From a plasmid, in the NCBI RefSeq assembly GCF_054482595.1, contig NZ_JBTHVH010000001.1: 64,000 nt of DNA. One strand, 5' to 3'. A program made the position numbers and the translations under genes. Position 1 is the first letter of the stretch. The number at the start of each line of letters is the position of its first letter. Below the pieces are notes generated by a model. The model did not search any database, had not been told where the DNA came from, and saw only the letters and a list, made by a program, of their open reading frames with translations. Below are positions 10,937 to 43,725 of this stretch, piece by piece.

Positions 10937-11841
10937 TCACTATTACCAAAGAGCGACTACTGACAATCAAGCAGTGGCGCGAAACATACGGACCTGGTAG
11001 CAACGTTGTACTGCCAGCAGAAGAAGCGGAAGAACTGGCACGAATTGCTCTGGCATCGCTGGAGCAGAATGTACTATCGGGCAACTCTCCGCTTATTCCT
11101 GGTGAAGTGTTGTCCGCAATCCGGGAGGTTGCCAGGATTCGTGCCGATTTCGATGATTTTGACGGTGACAGGCGAGGTATCGGTGATTGTCTGGATGAGG
11201 CCGAGCAAGAGCTTATCGTTACCATTAACAAATATGCCAGTCAGTTGGCAGCAGAACCGATAGCGACTAATGACGTTCGAGAGCAAACAGCCGTTCCGCC
11301 AATACAGGCTGATGTCGCGCAAGCAATTGAAAATCTCAAGCAGAAGTTAGTGGAATGCAATCGCTATAACTACTGCGCAGATGCAGTGAAGAACGTAGAG
11401 GATGCCTGCCGTGCTGTTAGCTATAGCCAAGCCGACAATCAGCCAGCATCTGGCAACCAGGCTGCCGAATCCAATCGCGGTAATGAGTGGACTGGCAATC
11501 CTGATATTGATAACGCCATCATCATGCTCGACCGCATAGATACGCTGGAAAATTGCGATGATGACCGTATTGAGGCTGTTAAGGCTGTTTTGCGTAGACT
11601 GGCTGGCAACTCTCCGGTAACTCCGGATGGTTGGATAAGCTGTAGTGAGCGAATGCCGGATACCAAAACAGCCGTTCTTGTTGCCAGGGAGTTTGACAGG
11701 AAAGGTGACTGGCGAATGAAATGGGCGACTTACATCCCGGGGCATCCTGACGCTAATGATGGGTGGGTAATACCTGGTGCGTCGTGGATTCCATCACACT
11801 GGATGCCGCTACCAGAACCGCCGCAGGAGGTGAATCAATGA
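10933..11841 (+). CDS. DUF551-like C-terminal domain protein
   Basis: C-terminal PDGWISCSERMPDT...HWMPLPEPP pattern. Confidence 0.45.
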   Translation: MITITKERLLTIKQWRETYGPGSNVVLPAEEAEELARIALASLEQNVLSGNSPLIPGEVLSAIREVARIRADFDDFDGDRRGIGDCLDEAEQELIVTINKYASQLAAEPIATNDVREQTAVPPIQADVAQAIENLKQKLVECNRYNYCADAVKNVEDACRAVSYSQADNQPASGNQAAESNRGNEWTGNPDIDNAIIMLDRIDTLENCDDDRIEAVKAVLRRLAGNSPVTPDGWISCSERMPDTKTAVLVAREFDRKGDWRMKWATYIPGHPDANDGWVIPGASWIPSHWMPLPEPPQEVNQ

Positions 11842-11905
11842 GCTGGCCTGAAGCATTCACCACGGTAGGAATTGTGATGGCGGCAGCACTGGGTTTGTAT
11901 TCAAT

Positions 11906-12157
11906 TTGTCGCTGGTGGTAACGATGGGAAAAATAACTTTTGTAGTCGAATTTGAGGATGGCAAAGAGCCACCTGTTAGCGCCAATCTTGATGTTGCTGG
12001 TGGCAGGCTTGTTTCGGTTCTATTTGGTGACTACCGAGATGACTTCTTCCAACCAGAAGAAGTTGATGTAGTGCGAGAGGCATTAAACGAGTTAAGTGTT
12101 GATAACGATGATGCTCATGCGGAAATCATCCAAAAAATGGAACTGCTAACTCACTAA
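11906..12157 (+). CDS. small acidic hypothetical protein
   Basis: Track ORF. Confidence 0.3.
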   Translation: MSLVVTMGKITFVVEFEDGKEPPVSANLDVAGGRLVSVLFGDYRDDFFQPEEVDVVREALNELSVDNDDAHAEIIQKMELLTH

Positions 12158-12205
12158 ATTATCAATTATGGTGCTATCACCTACGACACCGAGAGAAAAT
12201 TTATA

Positions 12206-12331
12206 ATGTCAAAAGTAAATGTTTTGATTTTTTCAGCAATTGTTGGCTTTGGTTTTACTGCCGGAGTGCAGATTTATATTACGTGGGAAAAAATCATCAA
12301 CTACGCATGGAGTTGTTTTATTAAGTGAGGT
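12206..12331 (+). CDS. 41-aa hydrophobic peptide (MSKVNVLIFSAIVGFGFTAGVQIYITWEKIINYAWSCFIK), single predicted TM helix
   Basis: Translated by hand; ATG with GAGAGA upstream; below the track's size cutoff. Confidence 0.35.
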
Positions 12332-12335
12332 AAGT

Positions 12336-12629
12336 ATGTGGAGAGGTAATAGTCATGGCAAAAGCCAGATGATACTTACCGAATATCAGTTTGACCATAA
12401 AACCAATAAATCACGTTCAGTATATTTGCTTCGGCACAATAGCCGCGTAAGGAATACCGTGCTGGAGCAAAATCTGACTGTTGAAATAGATAGTTACGGG
12501 GGCTTCAAGCCAACAATTTCGCTTGATGATTTTCCTCGTGGTTTAAGCGAAAGAGAAGCAATGCTGAAATTAGCAGAATGGCTACAAAGATTAAGCATTG
12601 CTATTGAAGATAACTGGTCTGAACCTTAA
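12336..12629 (+). CDS. hypothetical protein (97 aa)
   Basis: ATG at 12336 with AAGTGAGG SD; same frame as track ORF 12240..12629. Confidence 0.4.
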   Translation: MWRGNSHGKSQMILTEYQFDHKTNKSRSVYLLRHNSRVRNTVLEQNLTVEIDSYGGFKPTISLDDFPRGLSEREAMLKLAEWLQRLSIAIEDNWSEP

Positions 12630-12635
12630 ATTTAT

Positions 12636-13010
12636 ATGATGACACTAAAACATTTTCTTGACCGCCCATTATGGGCGGCAGCCGCAGGCTATGACTTTAA
12701 TTATATGGATTGCATGTCTTATACCGCCAATGCATACGACTATTCCTTCAGTCTGCTGCTTAATTCTTTAAGAATATTGCCGCAAACAGAAGTTGGAGAG
12801 CTTCATTTATGGCTATTGGGCTTTATCGCGGCTGTCGTTGGTATTGCTGTATGGCCTTTTATTTTCTGGCTGGTGGCTGTTGTAGTGTGGTTTAAGTGCA
12901 AGACATACCGGAAAAAGTATTTCTTAGGTGATGGAATGACTGATATTGCCAAAATGAACATTGAAGAATGGACTAAGGAATGTGAAAAGAAATGGCGCAA
13001 AAAGAAATGA
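12636..13010 (+). CDS. small membrane protein (two hydrophobic helices, basic C-terminus)
   Basis: Track ORF; LWLLGFIAAVVGIAVWPFIFWLVAVVVWF segment. Confidence 0.45.
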   Translation: MMTLKHFLDRPLWAAAAGYDFNYMDCMSYTANAYDYSFSLLLNSLRILPQTEVGELHLWLLGFIAAVVGIAVWPFIFWLVAVVVWFKCKTYRKKYFLGDGMTDIAKMNIEEWTKECEKKWRKKK

Positions 13011-13849
13011 CCAGAATAACTGAAGAGCGCATATCAGAGATTATTTCCCGTATCGAAATGTATGGTCACGGTGCTGGATATACGGCAGATGAAGGATTGG
13101 AAATAGCCCAGCAGATGCTGGCCTTGAGACAAAAAGAGCAACATGAAAGTAATACGTGTAGATTGAATTTTGAGCATTGGCTGGAACAGCAACGCGGAAA
13201 AATCGATGTGGACTGTGGTTGTGTGTCCACTGAAACATTCATGCACTGGCTGTGGGTAGCTTACGAGGCTGGCAACTATCCGGATATTCCGGATAGTTCG
13301 GTGCCAGCGCCAGGAAAGGGCGTCACCGGTGAACGTATCCGCATTAAGCCGCATGTTTATCGCGAACTGGTTAACCGTCTCCACGATACAGCGATCAAGT
13401 GTGCTGGCACCCAGCAATTACGAGAAAGAATTAGCCGTGTTTTGGGCGACGTTATTACACCAGATCATCATAAACAAGCCGAGAAAAGTGACCTGGAAAG
13501 GTGTCACCTTGAGGCGGCATTAAACATTAAGCCGGGGCATACGCTTGGCATTATTGATGCACTATTGGTTCATAAGATGGCCAGGGCTTTATTGCCGCTG
13601 GTGGCTGAAAAAGAGAACGCGAGCCTCAAAAAAATGCTGTCGCGGGCGGAAAGGGAATTATCAGGCAAATTATTGCCAGAAGAACTGCCACCAGCAGATA
13701 TACCAGATCGAGTGTCCCAGTGGATGAAGTCTTTTGGTTTGCCGTGGGAGGCTTTTTGGTGCTACGACCATCGCAGATGGTGTGATGAACTTGATAGCAA
13801 TTTTCCCTACTTTGCGGAAGGGAACACCTGCCCTCAATGCAGGGGATAG
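12992..13849 (+). CDS. hypothetical protein (285 aa)
   Basis: Track ORF. Confidence 0.4.
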   Translation: MAQKEMTRITEERISEIISRIEMYGHGAGYTADEGLEIAQQMLALRQKEQHESNTCRLNFEHWLEQQRGKIDVDCGCVSTETFMHWLWVAYEAGNYPDIPDSSVPAPGKGVTGERIRIKPHVYRELVNRLHDTAIKCAGTQQLRERISRVLGDVITPDHHKQAEKSDLERCHLEAALNIKPGHTLGIIDALLVHKMARALLPLVAEKENASLKKMLSRAERELSGKLLPEELPPADIPDRVSQWMKSFGLPWEAFWCYDHRRWCDELDSNFPYFAEGNTCPQCRG

Positions 13850-40360: not shown

Positions 40361-40377
40361 TATTGCTCTAATCATTT
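40361..40377 (+). promoter_or_regulatory. C1 operator (15/17) upstream of ssb
   Basis: ATTGCTCTAATCATTTT. Confidence 0.55.
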
Positions 40378-40397
40378 TATTTTATTAGGTAAGATAA

Positions 40398-41088: not shown

Positions 41089-41883
41089 ATGACAGCACAA
41101 AATACTAAAACCATTCAATACCGCCTGCGTAATGGCCAGAGTGTAGAAGTGACCATCAATAATGATGGTGTACCTGGCGAAAAGGTTTCGATCTCTGATC
41201 TGGCTATCGAAAAAACCATCATGTGCCACCTTGGCTTTACTGAAGAAGTGAGCAAAAAGCATGGTGTAGCTATCTGGCGCACAATGGATACTGGCATGCG
41301 CAGATTCATTACTGCTCGTACCCCTGGTATGACCATGATGGACCTCATACAGATTGCGCCGCTGTTTGAGTGTGAACCTTTGGATGTATTCAGCAATCCA
41401 GCTATCTGCCAGCAGTTATATGGTGAGATGAAACTCGCGGTTACCCCCATTGTGCTGCATGAAGGATCGCTTGCTGGCGTATGGAAAGTAGAGCGAATTT
41501 CAAGCTACATGCCATTCCACATCCATGTCAACGGCGTAATCGCAGGTGAAAATCAACCTGTTTCCGTTATAAAGTCAGACCTCAATCGCGCAATTCTTGA
41601 AGCAAGTTGTCGAGTTATCGGCCTGGGCAAACAGTCTTATGTTTCCTTCCCGGCTGGTCCTGAAGGCCCGGCAGAAATTCTGATTATGGATGCTGATCTG
41701 CTCTGGCAAATACAGTTTCTGATTGGCAAAAGCATCATCCGTGCTGAAGAACTCGATCAGTACATTACCTGCACGATGACGGATGAAGTCAAAAGTGTGG
41801 CTATAGCCAATGCCCGGAACCTGTGTCGTGCTGCATTAACAGAACCGCAAGAAAACATTCCAGAAGAAACAGAAAGTGACTAA
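41089..41883 (+). CDS. isaA: IsaA-like protein (264 aa)
   Basis: Position after ssb; name from memory of P1 order. Confidence 0.4.
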   Translation: MTAQNTKTIQYRLRNGQSVEVTINNDGVPGEKVSISDLAIEKTIMCHLGFTEEVSKKHGVAIWRTMDTGMRRFITARTPGMTMMDLIQIAPLFECEPLDVFSNPAICQQLYGEMKLAVTPIVLHEGSLAGVWKVERISSYMPFHIHVNGVIAGENQPVSVIKSDLNRAILEASCRVIGLGKQSYVSFPAGPEGPAEILIMDADLLWQIQFLIGKSIIRAEELDQYITCTMTDEVKSVAIANARNLCRAALTEPQENIPEETESD

Positions 41884-42080
41884 TAAAAACCCCGTCAGTT
41901 GGCGGGGAACTCCACGTCAAATGGCCAATTGTTATGTCAGCTAGCAGTTAAAGCGCCTAGTCATCATCTTTTAAAGAAGTCTTTTTAACTTACCTAAATT
42001 AGTGACACCTCCCGTTTTGCTTGCTATTGTACGCATTCATGAATCTATTCATTAATCTATTCACAATAGTAATTAAAACT

Positions 42081-43385
42081 ATGGCTATACATGCAACAAC
42101 AATCCGTAATTTGCTCAATCAAGGTCCTATGACACCAAGACAATTGGTTGAAAGACTAGGTGTTAGCCAACCAACGATATCTAGAGCATTAAGAGATCTT
42201 GGTGATGAAATCGTTAGGATCGGAAATGGAAGATCTATTCAATATGCTTTACGAGACTCTTTTAGAGGATTCGAATCAGTCCCCATTTATCGTATAACTG
42301 AAGAGGGGTGTATTTGCGTTCTTGGTACTCTCATTCCGGTGAGGCCAGAAGGCTATGTTATGGTTGAGGAAGGGAAAAATAACAGGCATAGCGATGGGTT
42401 ACCTTGGTGGTTATTTGATATGCGTCCACAAGGCTTCCTTGGAAGAGCATATGCATCAGCATATGCTCTTGAACTTAACCTTCCCTCAAATCCAGAGCAA
42501 TGGTCAGATACTGACGTGATCAAAGCCTTACTTAAGCATGGGCATGATGTTGTTGGTAATTTGTTAATTGGAGAGCAAGCACGCACGCATTTTTTAGAGA
42601 TGCAGCCTCCTGTTCCTGTTAATCGTGAAAGTGAATATCCTGTATTAGCTTTAGCTGCTGGTGAAGGTGATGTGCCCGGTTCATCTGCTGGAGGTGAACA
42701 ACCCAAATTTTGTACTTTCACAGAGCGTGGACATGTATTAGTGAAATTCTCTGCGCCTAACGACACCCCTATAAGTGAGCGTTGGAGAGATCTCTTGTTT
42801 GCTGAACATCTCGCATTAAAAGTTCTGGGGGTAGAAACAGAAGTTTTTGATTATAACGGTCAGAGATTCTTGGAAATTCCCCGATTTGATCGTGTTGGTC
42901 AACTAGGTCGGGTAGGTGTATTCTCACTTCGTGCACTTGATGCAGAATTTGTTGGGAATGCAAGAGCAACATGGCCCTTGCTGGTTAAAGAGTTGGTAAA
43001 AAATAAGTGCGTCCATCCTGATGCGATTATTATAGCAACAAGGCTATGGTCTTTTGGTTTGCTAATAGGCAATACCGATATGCATAATGGTAACCTATCG
43101 TTTATTAGTAGCCACGGACGCCCATATCATATTGCTCCAGCCTATGACATGTTACCTATGGGTTTTGCTCCACGCTCTGGGGGAGCAATATCTAATGAGC
43201 TTAGAAAAACAGCACTACCAGACTTTGTAAGTCGAAAAATATGGGATGAATCTCTTGAATTGGCTGAAAAATTTTATGCATTGGCCTGTGAGTCCGACAA
43301 ATTCTCAGCTAACTTTACTCCATGTTTAGAAGCGCTACGCATCCACCTAGATGATTGTAAGATACGCATAGCCCGCCTGGCATAA
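42081..43385 (+). CDS. HipA-family Ser/Thr kinase with fused N-terminal HTH (YjjJ/HipH-like)
   Basis: HTH PRQLVERLGVSQPTISRALRDLG; kinase motifs GNTDMHNGNLSF and APAYDM; start uncertain (TTG 42021 or ATG 42081). Confidence 0.7.
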   Translation: MAIHATTIRNLLNQGPMTPRQLVERLGVSQPTISRALRDLGDEIVRIGNGRSIQYALRDSFRGFESVPIYRITEEGCICVLGTLIPVRPEGYVMVEEGKNNRHSDGLPWWLFDMRPQGFLGRAYASAYALELNLPSNPEQWSDTDVIKALLKHGHDVVGNLLIGEQARTHFLEMQPPVPVNRESEYPVLALAAGEGDVPGSSAGGEQPKFCTFTERGHVLVKFSAPNDTPISERWRDLLFAEHLALKVLGVETEVFDYNGQRFLEIPRFDRVGQLGRVGVFSLRALDAEFVGNARATWPLLVKELVKNKCVHPDAIIIATRLWSFGLLIGNTDMHNGNLSFISSHGRPYHIAPAYDMLPMGFAPRSGGAISNELRKTALPDFVSRKIWDESLELAEKFYALACESDKFSANFTPCLEALRIHLDDCKIRIARLA

Positions 43386-43390
43386 ACAAC

Positions 43391-43414
43391 AAATCCCGCC
43401 GATTGGCGGGATTT
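43391..43414. terminator. perfect hairpin AAATCCCGCC-GATT-GGCGGGATTT, bidirectional
   Basis: Between convergent hipA-like and hxr. Confidence 0.55.
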
Positions 43415-43416
43415 CT

Positions 43417-43725
43417 TCAATATACGATCTGGTCTGCATGATCACCAAAATCATCGTCGTCGTCCTCATCGCCACCATCTACTGCTGGCCAATCAACAAA
43501 CCAGCCAGCGTAAAGATGCAGCGTTCGGAGAACATCACTTGCGGGAGCATCAAGGGTGTTAACGAATCCCATATAGCTATTGGGATTTGCCCCAGCTATG
43601 GCTTCAGCGATCATGTCCTCGGTAATGTCACCGGAGATAATGCTTAAACGCCCGGAAACTTCTTCATTATCATCAAATTCGATAATGGCATCTCCGCCTA
43701 ATGGCGCTGCGATTTTAATCTGCAT
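43417..43725 (-). CDS. hxr: last gene of dar operon (hxr position), acidic 102-aa protein
   Basis: Position; name from memory. Confidence 0.35.
   Translation of the reverse strand: MQIKIAAPLGGDAIIEFDDNEEVSGRLSIISGDITEDMIAEAIAGANPNSYMGFVNTLDAPASDVLRTLHLYAGWFVDWPAVDGGDEDDDDDFGDHADQIVY

Follow-up and report, generated by a model that had tools for sequence, protein, structure and literature searches.

A HipH/YjjJ-family kinase gene with a predicted self-repression operator in the isaA-hxr variable site of a P1-like phage-plasmid

The isaA-hxr island and its kinase gene

The stretch of DNA analyzed here, referred to as the window, comprises 64,000 nucleotides (nt) of contig NZ_JBTHVH010000001.1 (NCBI RefSeq assembly GCF_054482595.1) and is a P1-like (IncY) phage-plasmid. 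Its gene order around the site of interest is lyz (−), ssb (+), isaA (+), an AT-rich island, hxr (−), ddrB (−), ddrA (−) and darA (−), and the island contains a single long open reading frame (ORF) coding for a winged helix-turn-helix (HTH) domain fused to a HipA-type Ser/Thr kinase. When aligned with P1 (NC_005856) by BLAST, homology ends at 41857 and returns at 43419, the island having replaced the 3′ end of isaA together with IS1 and isaB. To the left, isaA (41089..41883, + strand) is P1 backbone, 96% identical to P1 up to 41857, and its last 9 codons have diverged yet can be aligned; to the right, hxr (43417..43725, − strand) is P1 backbone again. The G+C content (GC) of 41912-43414 is 41.8% against a window mean of 48.5% (standard deviation 2.6), which places it at the 0.24th percentile of 1.5-kb windows and makes it essentially the lowest in the window. 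An earlier, sequence-only reading had described an AT-rich island at 41912-43414, where P1 has IS1 and isaB; both the composition and the location hold, but the limits of the island proper are about 41884-43390.

The ORF spans 42021-43385 on the + strand, and we assign the hipH/yjjJ-like gene itself to 42081..43385 (434 amino acids, aa; WP_024192174.1). Its ATG at 42081 is backed by homologues, by the NCBIfam alignment and by the NCBI Prokaryotic Genome Annotation Pipeline (PGAP), which already labels this exact protein YjjJ. Two upstream starts (TTG at 42021 and ATG at 42039) were rejected because the extension spans a repeat array, described below, and homologues show no protein-level conservation of it. 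The product matches NCBIfam NF007297 ("HipA family toxin YjjJ", an equivalog) with 533.6 bits against a cutoff of 401, aligning aa 4-434 with profile positions 3-446 of 446, and Pfam identifies HipA_C (4e-15, aa 201-363) and HTH_5/MarR_2 (aa 4-43). It is colinear with, and 35% identical to, HipH/YjjJ of Escherichia coli K-12 over aa 6-433, and a HMMER family search with a limit of E<=1e-30 yields 671 clusters (50% identity level), of which almost all measure 430-460 aa and have the same architecture. The earlier description of a solitary HipA-family kinase with a fused HTH is thus borne out by the profiles, and the gene is a full member of the HipH/YjjJ family (NF007297; Hip clade X). In PHROGs the corresponding entry is phrog_30447, listed as 'unknown function', with a 448-residue profile starting at ATG 42039 inside the repeat array (window 42039-43385); compared with the NCBIfam and PGAP assignment (YjjJ, start 42081), this is an annotation gap between libraries.

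The winged HTH domain (42090..42257, + strand, aa 4-59) has a recognition helix starting S29-Q30-P31-T32. In the AlphaFold2 (AF2) model it consists of helices 2-12, 19-26 and 30-43 and wing strands 44-47 and 54-58, with pLDDT above 90 over aa 2-58 and a local match to the ArsR-like fold, and S29, S34 and R35 are nearly invariant in a 55-member family alignment. The Gly-rich ATP-binding loop VPGSSAGGEQPK (42675..42710, + strand) carries serines S201 and S202, conserved in at least 90% of the 55 members, and its motif GSSAGGEQPKF is identical in K-12 HipH; Gerdes et al. considered the two loop serines possible autophosphorylation sites (PMC8262856). The catalytic motif GNTDMHNGNLSF (43068..43103, + strand, aa 330-341), containing D333 and N338, and the Mg-binding motif APAYDM (43134..43151, + strand, aa 352-357), containing D356, are both present as quoted in the sequence-only reading, and this catalytic region (43068..43151) can be aligned with that of HipT. 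G205, K209, D333, N338 and D356 are invariant in the family alignment, and all catalytic residues of the window protein are intact. The complete AF2 model has a pLDDT of 93.8 and a pTM of 0.90, the only low-pLDDT segment being the Gly-rich loop (aa 199-203), and its best folds in PDB are HipA (Foldseek E 8e-10), then HipT and CtkA; the copy of PDB searched held no HipH structure.

A canonical type II toxin-antitoxin system has a separate co-transcribed antitoxin gene, and none is located on either side of the kinase gene. In the upstream gap of 197 nt no ORF exceeds 39 aa, and those present were rejected as antitoxin candidates as they are chance ORFs (21-39 aa) overlapping the promoter and a hairpin. 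Hxr, annotated in P1 as an Xre homologue, was considered as a hidden HipB-like antitoxin and rejected because it has no Pfam match even at E<=10; the hxr gene is moreover convergent with the kinase gene and occurs in every P1-like backbone that lacks the kinase. Although the sequence-only reading was right that no HipB-like gene is adjacent, its implication that this architecture is unusual is not supported: it defines the known HipH/YjjJ family, named by Gerdes et al. in 2021 (Hip clade X), in which a monocistronic gene without HipB is the rule (PMC8262856), and the missing HipB is therefore normal here. The window protein shows every testable feature of the published HipH definition, including the N-terminal HTH extension, about 100 aa in that definition, and the lack of an adjacent antitoxin, and the neighbors of its homologues differ at every locus. 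The RefSeq product name is family naming, not evidence of a two-gene system. By homology to K-12 HipH, which is toxic when overproduced (PMC9948734), the label 'toxin' is reasonable. Ser/Thr kinase activity, with growth inhibition on overproduction, is reported only for K-12 HipH, to which the window protein is 35% identical, and would be a prediction for the latter.

The promoter and the 12-bp repeat array

A promoter scan predicts a sigma-70 promoter for the kinase gene at 42002..42030 (+ strand), with the −35 element GTGACA, a spacer of 17 nt and the extended −10 element TGcTATTGT. Beginning 4 nt past the −10 element, and ahead of the start codon, are three tandem 12-bp direct repeats, ATTCATGAATCT / ATTCATTAATCT / ATTCACAATAGT (42035..42070, + strand), which share the core ATTCA and constitute a putative operator. 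The arrangement ATTCA-N7-ATTCA-N7-ATTCA is unique in the 64-kb window and was seen in 0 of 300 shuffles. The promoter layout, (G/A)TGAC(A/T) - 17 nt - TGnTAnnnT, is kept in the homologues of Enterobacter, Gibbsiella, Pantoea and Salmonella, and repeats in the same layout are found upstream of these and of a metagenomic island homologue. K-12 hipH also has three such repeats directly upstream of its start (L003 9734-9769), despite the 35% protein identity, and in two alleles borne by P1-like plasmids the ATTCA cores are kept while adjacent bases vary.

At least 586 HipH loci were found, and we surveyed 80 loci from GTDB species representatives of the Gamma- and Betaproteobacteria (40-70% identity; 880 kb). 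At least three exact copies of a 5-mer at exactly 12 bp occur in 54 of 79 upstream regions, as compared with 1.3% of random windows from the same loci. The exact ATTCA triple is present in 50 of the 80 loci, always upstream of a hipH-like start, and all 62 triples in the 880 kb (both strands) are located just upstream of such a start and on the same strand. The family unit consensus is ATCTATTCAnnn (199 units); 45 arrays have three copies and 16 have four, and in 39 of these 61 a −10-like hexamer precedes the first core, its end being 4 nt away in 25 arrays and 2 nt away in 14. The repeat and the recognition helix vary together: all 64 loci with ATTCA arrays (64/64) code for a helix of the form SQ(P/A)T.SR, whereas at all 12 loci (12/12) with other 12-bp motifs (ATTCG, TCGTTAC, CACAT, GTTTC) the helix starts (S/T)R..T..R. 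The loci listed for the array are the window (42035-42070), L003, L014, L017, L019-L021, L030-L032 and L044-L123. Two of these retain the array upstream of homologues (~69% identity) whose reading frames stop after 53 and 36 codons, in Pantoea dispersa DSM 30073 (L056 6001-6159) and in an IMG/VR sequence (L030 1631-1738) respectively; these are pseudogenes or reflect sequencing errors.

Conservation of the array and its co-variation with the recognition helix together point to the protein's own winged HTH binding the repeats across the transcription start and thereby repressing its own gene. An RNA element was considered as another explanation of the repeats and rejected, as no structure is predicted for the leader RNA (z = 0.18) and Rfam gives nothing credible for the region, the sole match being at the right terminator with 22 bits against a gathering score of 114. 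We found no description of these repeats with hipH/yjjJ in the literature searched, which was itself incomplete.

Flanking terminators, the variable site and distribution

Hairpins are present at both ends of the island. The right hairpin (43391..43414; −17 / −22.9 kcal/mol) is a bidirectional intrinsic terminator, and the left hairpin (41890..41907; −13.5 kcal/mol) has a T-run on the − strand only. The site is empty in the P1-like plasmid NZ_CP141752.1, in which just 29 bp separate isaA and hxr and hold exactly the right hairpin, AAATCCCGCCGATTGGCGGGATTT; because the identical hairpin sits in this empty site, 43391-43414 is the backbone bidirectional isaA/hxr terminator, and in the window it is common to the kinase gene and the convergent hxr/dar operon. 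The left hairpin is placed after the isaA stop codon, as the right hairpin is in the empty-site plasmid, and is a diverged second copy of it (16 of 20 positions match), so the cassette is bracketed by two terminator copies (window 41887-41907 and 43388-43414; empty-site counterpart L022 5385-5410). This bracketing suggests that the cassette was inserted, or recombined, at the terminator itself. The sequence-only reading had proposed that clean hairpin terminators flank the island. Both hairpins exist, but the left one, with its T-run on the − strand only, is not a clean isaA terminator, and the right one belongs to the backbone rather than being the island's own flank.

Transcription of the ssb-isaA unit runs toward the kinase gene and is governed by Ossb, an operator for the C1 repressor upstream of ssb (40362..40378, + strand) that has 2 mismatches to the P1 C1 consensus and lies at the P1 Ossb position. 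Because the left hairpin lacks a T-run on the + strand, transcription from this C1-controlled unit may enter the island. Direct control of the kinase gene by C1 was rejected, as there is no C1 operator within 41884-42081. Across the window, 12 matches to the C1 operator (<=3 mismatches) are found where 0.29 are expected by chance, at 1412, 5036, 5085, 7177, 16912, 20218, 22869, 23333, 23416, 27138, 36512 and 40362, consistent with an intact, dispersed P1-type immunity network.

The isaA-hxr site corresponds to the published RD-2 (Venturini et al. 2019, PMC6906374), or variable region 2 (PMC9603915), of P1-like elements, described as AT-rich in both papers, with IS1, a phosphohydrolase, nmpC/odaA, blaSHV-2 and unknown ORFs as reported cargo. 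Neither of these papers was found to mention a HipA/HipH kinase at RD-2, and we found no paper linking HipA with P1-like phage-plasmids in the literature searched. The island has the properties of RD-2 cargo in that it lies between ssb/isaA and hxr and that only some P1-like genomes carry the kinase gene, and in PLSDB records the same place is occupied by IS1, TnpB elements, mcr-1, an OmpC/NmpC porin, a dGTPase or gldA. In E. albertii p2RM9976 (locus L023 4631-5986) the ssb-hxr site contains an annotated anti-phage dGTPase, and isaA is replaced too. Elsewhere in the window there is a second AT-rich stretch, at about 11550-13600 (about 42% GC), with several + strand ORFs of 124-302 aa.

PLSDB contains the island in 31 plasmids (30 from E. 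coli), in two allelic forms of >=99% and about 97.5% identity, and the P1 backbone around the site is present in about 519 PLSDB records. The kinase gene therefore occurs in roughly 6% of P1-like PLSDB records and is accessory, not core, among P1-like plasmids. The gene has a HipA-family profile match and is not conserved throughout P1-like genomes, so that neither of the refuting outcomes named in the sequence-only reading was seen. The observation made there is confirmed with four corrections, and its interpretation is partly supported. Among complete E. coli genomes 25 of 5426 have the gene (blastn), with 24 of the copies on plasmids; six IMG/VR contigs carry it, all ten sampled contigs encoding the exact protein (10/10) are P1-like, and the RefSeq name yjjJ is already on about 30 P1-like plasmids. 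Carrier plasmids come from humans, poultry, pigs, ducks and wastewater in several countries. Searches of the 50,697 deposited phage genomes in INPHARED (megablast and tblastn) gave no match, and the gene is absent from P1, P7 and other sequenced P1-like phages; phrog_30447 must therefore rest on sequences outside the INPHARED collection. We note two atypical contexts. One E. coli record labeled chromosome, NZ_CM148631.1, has the gene at 4437679-4438983, and on a 575-kb contig (L013) the P1-like segment ends at a TnpB element beside host genes (OapA-like, FKBP). Both may be integrated P1-like segments or the result of misassembly.

No close donor was found: in a search of 5.8 billion proteins the range from 72% to 100% identity was empty. 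The nearest relatives (72% identity and below) are chromosomal "YjjJ" proteins of Pantoea, Serratia, Enterobacter, Gibbsiella and others. The gene has a GC of 42.5% compared with 52-59% in the closest homologues (68-72% identity), which hints at an unsampled low-GC enterobacterium as donor; the Proteus faecis homologue is at 43%. A recent copy of the host hipH was rejected as the source, as blastn of E. coli genomes with the gene does not detect chromosomal hipH. Between the two P1-borne alleles, whose junctions are the same, there are 15 synonymous and 10 non-synonymous changes, with a ratio of non-synonymous to synonymous substitution rates (dN/dS) of 0.195. From this ratio and the shared junctions we infer that the gene has been kept functional while in P1-like backbones.

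Proposed control, possible roles and known systems

We think it probable that the island is a self-contained single-gene HipH cassette, one of the optional cargoes at the variable site between isaA and hxr (RD-2) in the P1-like phage-plasmid. In the mechanism we propose, the HTH would bind the repeats head-to-tail across the transcription start and repress its own gene, so that a kinase with toxic potential would stay scarce in the lysogen with no need for a second protein as antitoxin or repressor. Kinase that is released or over-expressed would phosphorylate itself and host proteins and slow growth, the K-12 HipH targets offered for comparison being ribosomal protein L31 (RpmE) and CsrA. Once the prophage is induced, transcripts extending from the C1-controlled ssb-isaA unit into the island could contribute further expression.

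Several points weigh against this interpretation. K-12 HipH is reported to autophosphorylate, to phosphorylate RpmE and CsrA, and to have a kinase-dependent toxicity that is rescued by HipB (Gratani et al., PMC9948734), whereas Liao et al. report DNase activity, a requirement of the HTH for toxicity, and regulation of the hipH promoter by cyclic di-GMP (c-di-GMP) (PMC11452175). The two accounts disagree on whether toxicity is due to the kinase or to a claimed HTH-requiring DNase, and neither can simply be transferred to the window protein at 35% identity; as K-12 HipH is the sole characterized member, the substrates may also differ. Some other conserved factor could bind the repeats, although such a factor would need to have accompanied the gene through two classes of Proteobacteria and into a phage-plasmid. 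Few independent lineages may underlie the co-variation, with perhaps only 2-4 clades among the R-type helices, and binding of the HipH HTH to these repeats is not reported in the literature searched. No Shine-Dalgarno sequence is visible, and the expression level is therefore uncertain.

A broader proposition, which we consider rather unlikely, is that HipH proteins in general are one-polypeptide toxin-regulator modules arrayed head-to-tail on the 3-4 twelve-bp repeats of their operator at the transcription start, with occupancy both setting the dose and restraining the kinase, and that the P1-borne copy either taps the host HipH or triggers abortive infection. Were this so, a phage-plasmid could join the host HipH circuit by cross-repression or titration; alternatively, release from DNA under attack by a competing phage would provide a single-gene abortive-infection trigger. 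The plasmid gene and K-12 hipH have in common the operator core CTATTCA and a recognition helix of the type SQ.T.SR, and each protein might therefore regulate the other's promoter in a K-12-like host.

What role might have favored such a cassette can be ranked approximately, with host physiology or tolerance first, followed by defence and then by a passenger without a role, and with plasmid addiction and lytic takeover equal last. Even the first is a tentative choice: a low level of kinase would retune translation, carbon storage or division, or raise stress or antibiotic tolerance in a subpopulation, possibly by way of the host HipH/HipA/HipB circuit, and the carrier cell, and with it the plasmid, would gain. 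This is in keeping with the purifying selection on the gene and with the K-12 protein, which acts on RpmE and CsrA, affects division and carbon metabolism, cross-talks with HipA/HipB (PMC9948734) and is tied to c-di-GMP and to persisters in biofilms (PMC11452175), and the common CTATTCA core and SQ.T.SR helix make cross-regulation plausible; however, at only 35% identity the signals as well as the substrates may differ, and Gratani et al. found that HipH does not affect antibiotic tolerance directly (PMC9948734). We regard it as unlikely, but next in order, that the cassette acts in phage defence or exclusion, an auto-repressed, DNA-bound kinase being activated by infection with another phage and phosphorylating translation or regulatory proteins to abort the infection, which would shield both the resident P1-like plasmid and the clone of cells around it. 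A role in defence has been validated for HipA-family kinases elsewhere (HipAD/DS-6, PMC13092281; HipA+DUF3037, PMC12548924), but with a separate DUF3037 partner that is absent here, and a PGAP-annotated anti-phage dGTPase or a porin occupies the same hot spot in other P1-like plasmids. Some close homologues lie next to a type I restriction-modification (R-M) system or a GmrSD-like gene, or in an island with integrase, AlpA, Fic and BrxR genes, and R-M, GmrSD, BrxR or integrase genes are near four of eight Pfam-annotated homologue contexts (4/8, a count that has no background control), but the other contexts are housekeeping or metabolic, and K-12 HipH is chromosomal and has been studied for other roles. 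An enrichment in defence islands, promising in the first contexts, was not upheld by PADLOC scans of the 47 nearest-neighbor ORFs at 12 further loci, which gave a weak match in 1 of the 47, to a generic Csa3-like HTH. With PADLOC-DB v2 the protein itself has only local matches (E 2e-4 to 7e-3), to generic HTH models and, over 30 residues of the catalytic motif, to the candidate PDC-M03A; this last weakly favors defence, whereas the lack of any full-length model match disfavors it, and the cassette does not qualify as a known anti-phage system of the HipAD/DS-6 or PDC-M66 kind.

Less likely again is that the gene is a passenger without a selected role, acquired by recombination at a site that accepts many inserts and propagated clonally as the plasmid lineages carrying it succeeded. 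The site does take highly diverse cargo, insertion sequence elements included, the GC of the gene is foreign to the backbone as well as to its closest homologues, and there is no known donor closer than 72% identity; but the ORF and all the catalytic residues are intact, the carrier plasmids come from many hosts and sources in several countries, and a dN/dS of 0.2 between alleles with the same junctions indicates that these diverged inside P1-like backbones. We think it improbable that the cassette serves plasmid addiction as a one-polypeptide toxin-antitoxin, with the HTH/N-terminal part acting as a cis-antitoxin that is lost or diluted after plasmid loss. Gerdes et al. did propose the HTH extension as a possible cis-acting antitoxin, with EzeT as precedent (PMC8262856), the gene is on a low-copy plasmid prophage, and plasmid-borne hipBA stabilizes plasmids in Klebsiella michiganensis (PMC11487325). 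In a single polypeptide, however, toxin and antitoxin have no evident reason to differ in stability, P1-like elements as a rule have phd-doc for this purpose (PMC9603915), 94% of P1-like plasmids are without the gene, and the chromosomal homologues are in ordinary neighborhoods. Equally improbable is a lytic host-takeover kinase, with a logic like that of T7 gp0.7, expressed mainly by read-through from ssb-isaA after induction. The co-orientation with ssb-isaA, the C1 operator upstream of ssb and the intervening hairpin without a U-tract on the + strand would all suit this role, but the gene has its own promoter and operator in a layout identical to that of chromosomal homologues, and its absence from P1, P7 and all deposited phage genomes argues that it is not needed for lytic growth.

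The HipH family, the RD-2 site and the RefSeq name yjjJ were already known, and to the list of P1-like cargo the gene is an unremarkable addition, a divergent HipH kinase spreading in clinical and farm E. coli. What is added here is the presence of a divergent, AT-rich HipH subclade in the P1-like RD-2, together with an operator prediction for the whole family, and the control array seems to be undescribed. The conserved array and the matching helix changes predict self-repression, name the bases and residues concerned and extend to K-12 hipH, and they raise possible cross-talk between plasmid-borne and chromosomal HipH in one cell.

Of the known systems, K-12 HipH (YjjJ, b4385) has the same length, the N-terminal HTH with a HipA-type core, the Gly-rich loop with two serines, the D-x-H-x-x-N catalytic motif and the Mg-binding D, and both genes are monocistronic with no adjacent antitoxin and with three 12-bp CTATTCA repeats before the start; both proteins also exceed the cutoff of the NCBIfam equivalog. 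The window protein differs in its low identity (only 35%) and in belonging to a separate subclade, whose nearest relatives (62-72% identity) occupy scattered variable regions in Pantoea, Enterobacter, Serratia, Proteus and some Betaproteobacteria and not the deoD-lplA locus; the plasmid gene is also AT-rich and phage-plasmid-borne, and has an extra 12 nt between the last repeat and the ATG. In structure the model comes closest to HipA (Foldseek E 8e-10, TM about 0.55) of the HipBA systems of E. coli and Shewanella; HipA has the same catalytic residues, and HipB at its own promoter is the paradigm for the HTH autoregulation proposed here. HipB operators are palindromic, whereas the operator proposed here consists of 3-4 direct 12-bp repeats; there is no hipB, the HTH being fused to the kinase and of the winged ArsR/MarR rather than the Xre type, identity to HipA is about 14%, and the Pfam HipA N-terminal domains are not detected in the window protein. 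HipBST (E. coli O127, Legionella) provides the closest solved structure by sequence, HipT(Lp) (E 7.5e-6, aa 255-365), and the same two-serine Gly-rich loop logic (PMC8262856), but it is a three-gene system with HipS as antitoxin, and HipT lacks the N-terminal extension that is here predicted to be a DNA-binding domain. HipAD / DS-6 also has a HipA-family kinase, whose catalysis is needed for phage defence (PMC13092281, PMC12548924), but it requires as neutralizer the DUF3037 partner and belongs to another Hip subfamily. With the RD-2 of P1-like phage-plasmids, finally, the island is alike in position, in low GC and in its cargo-exchange behavior.

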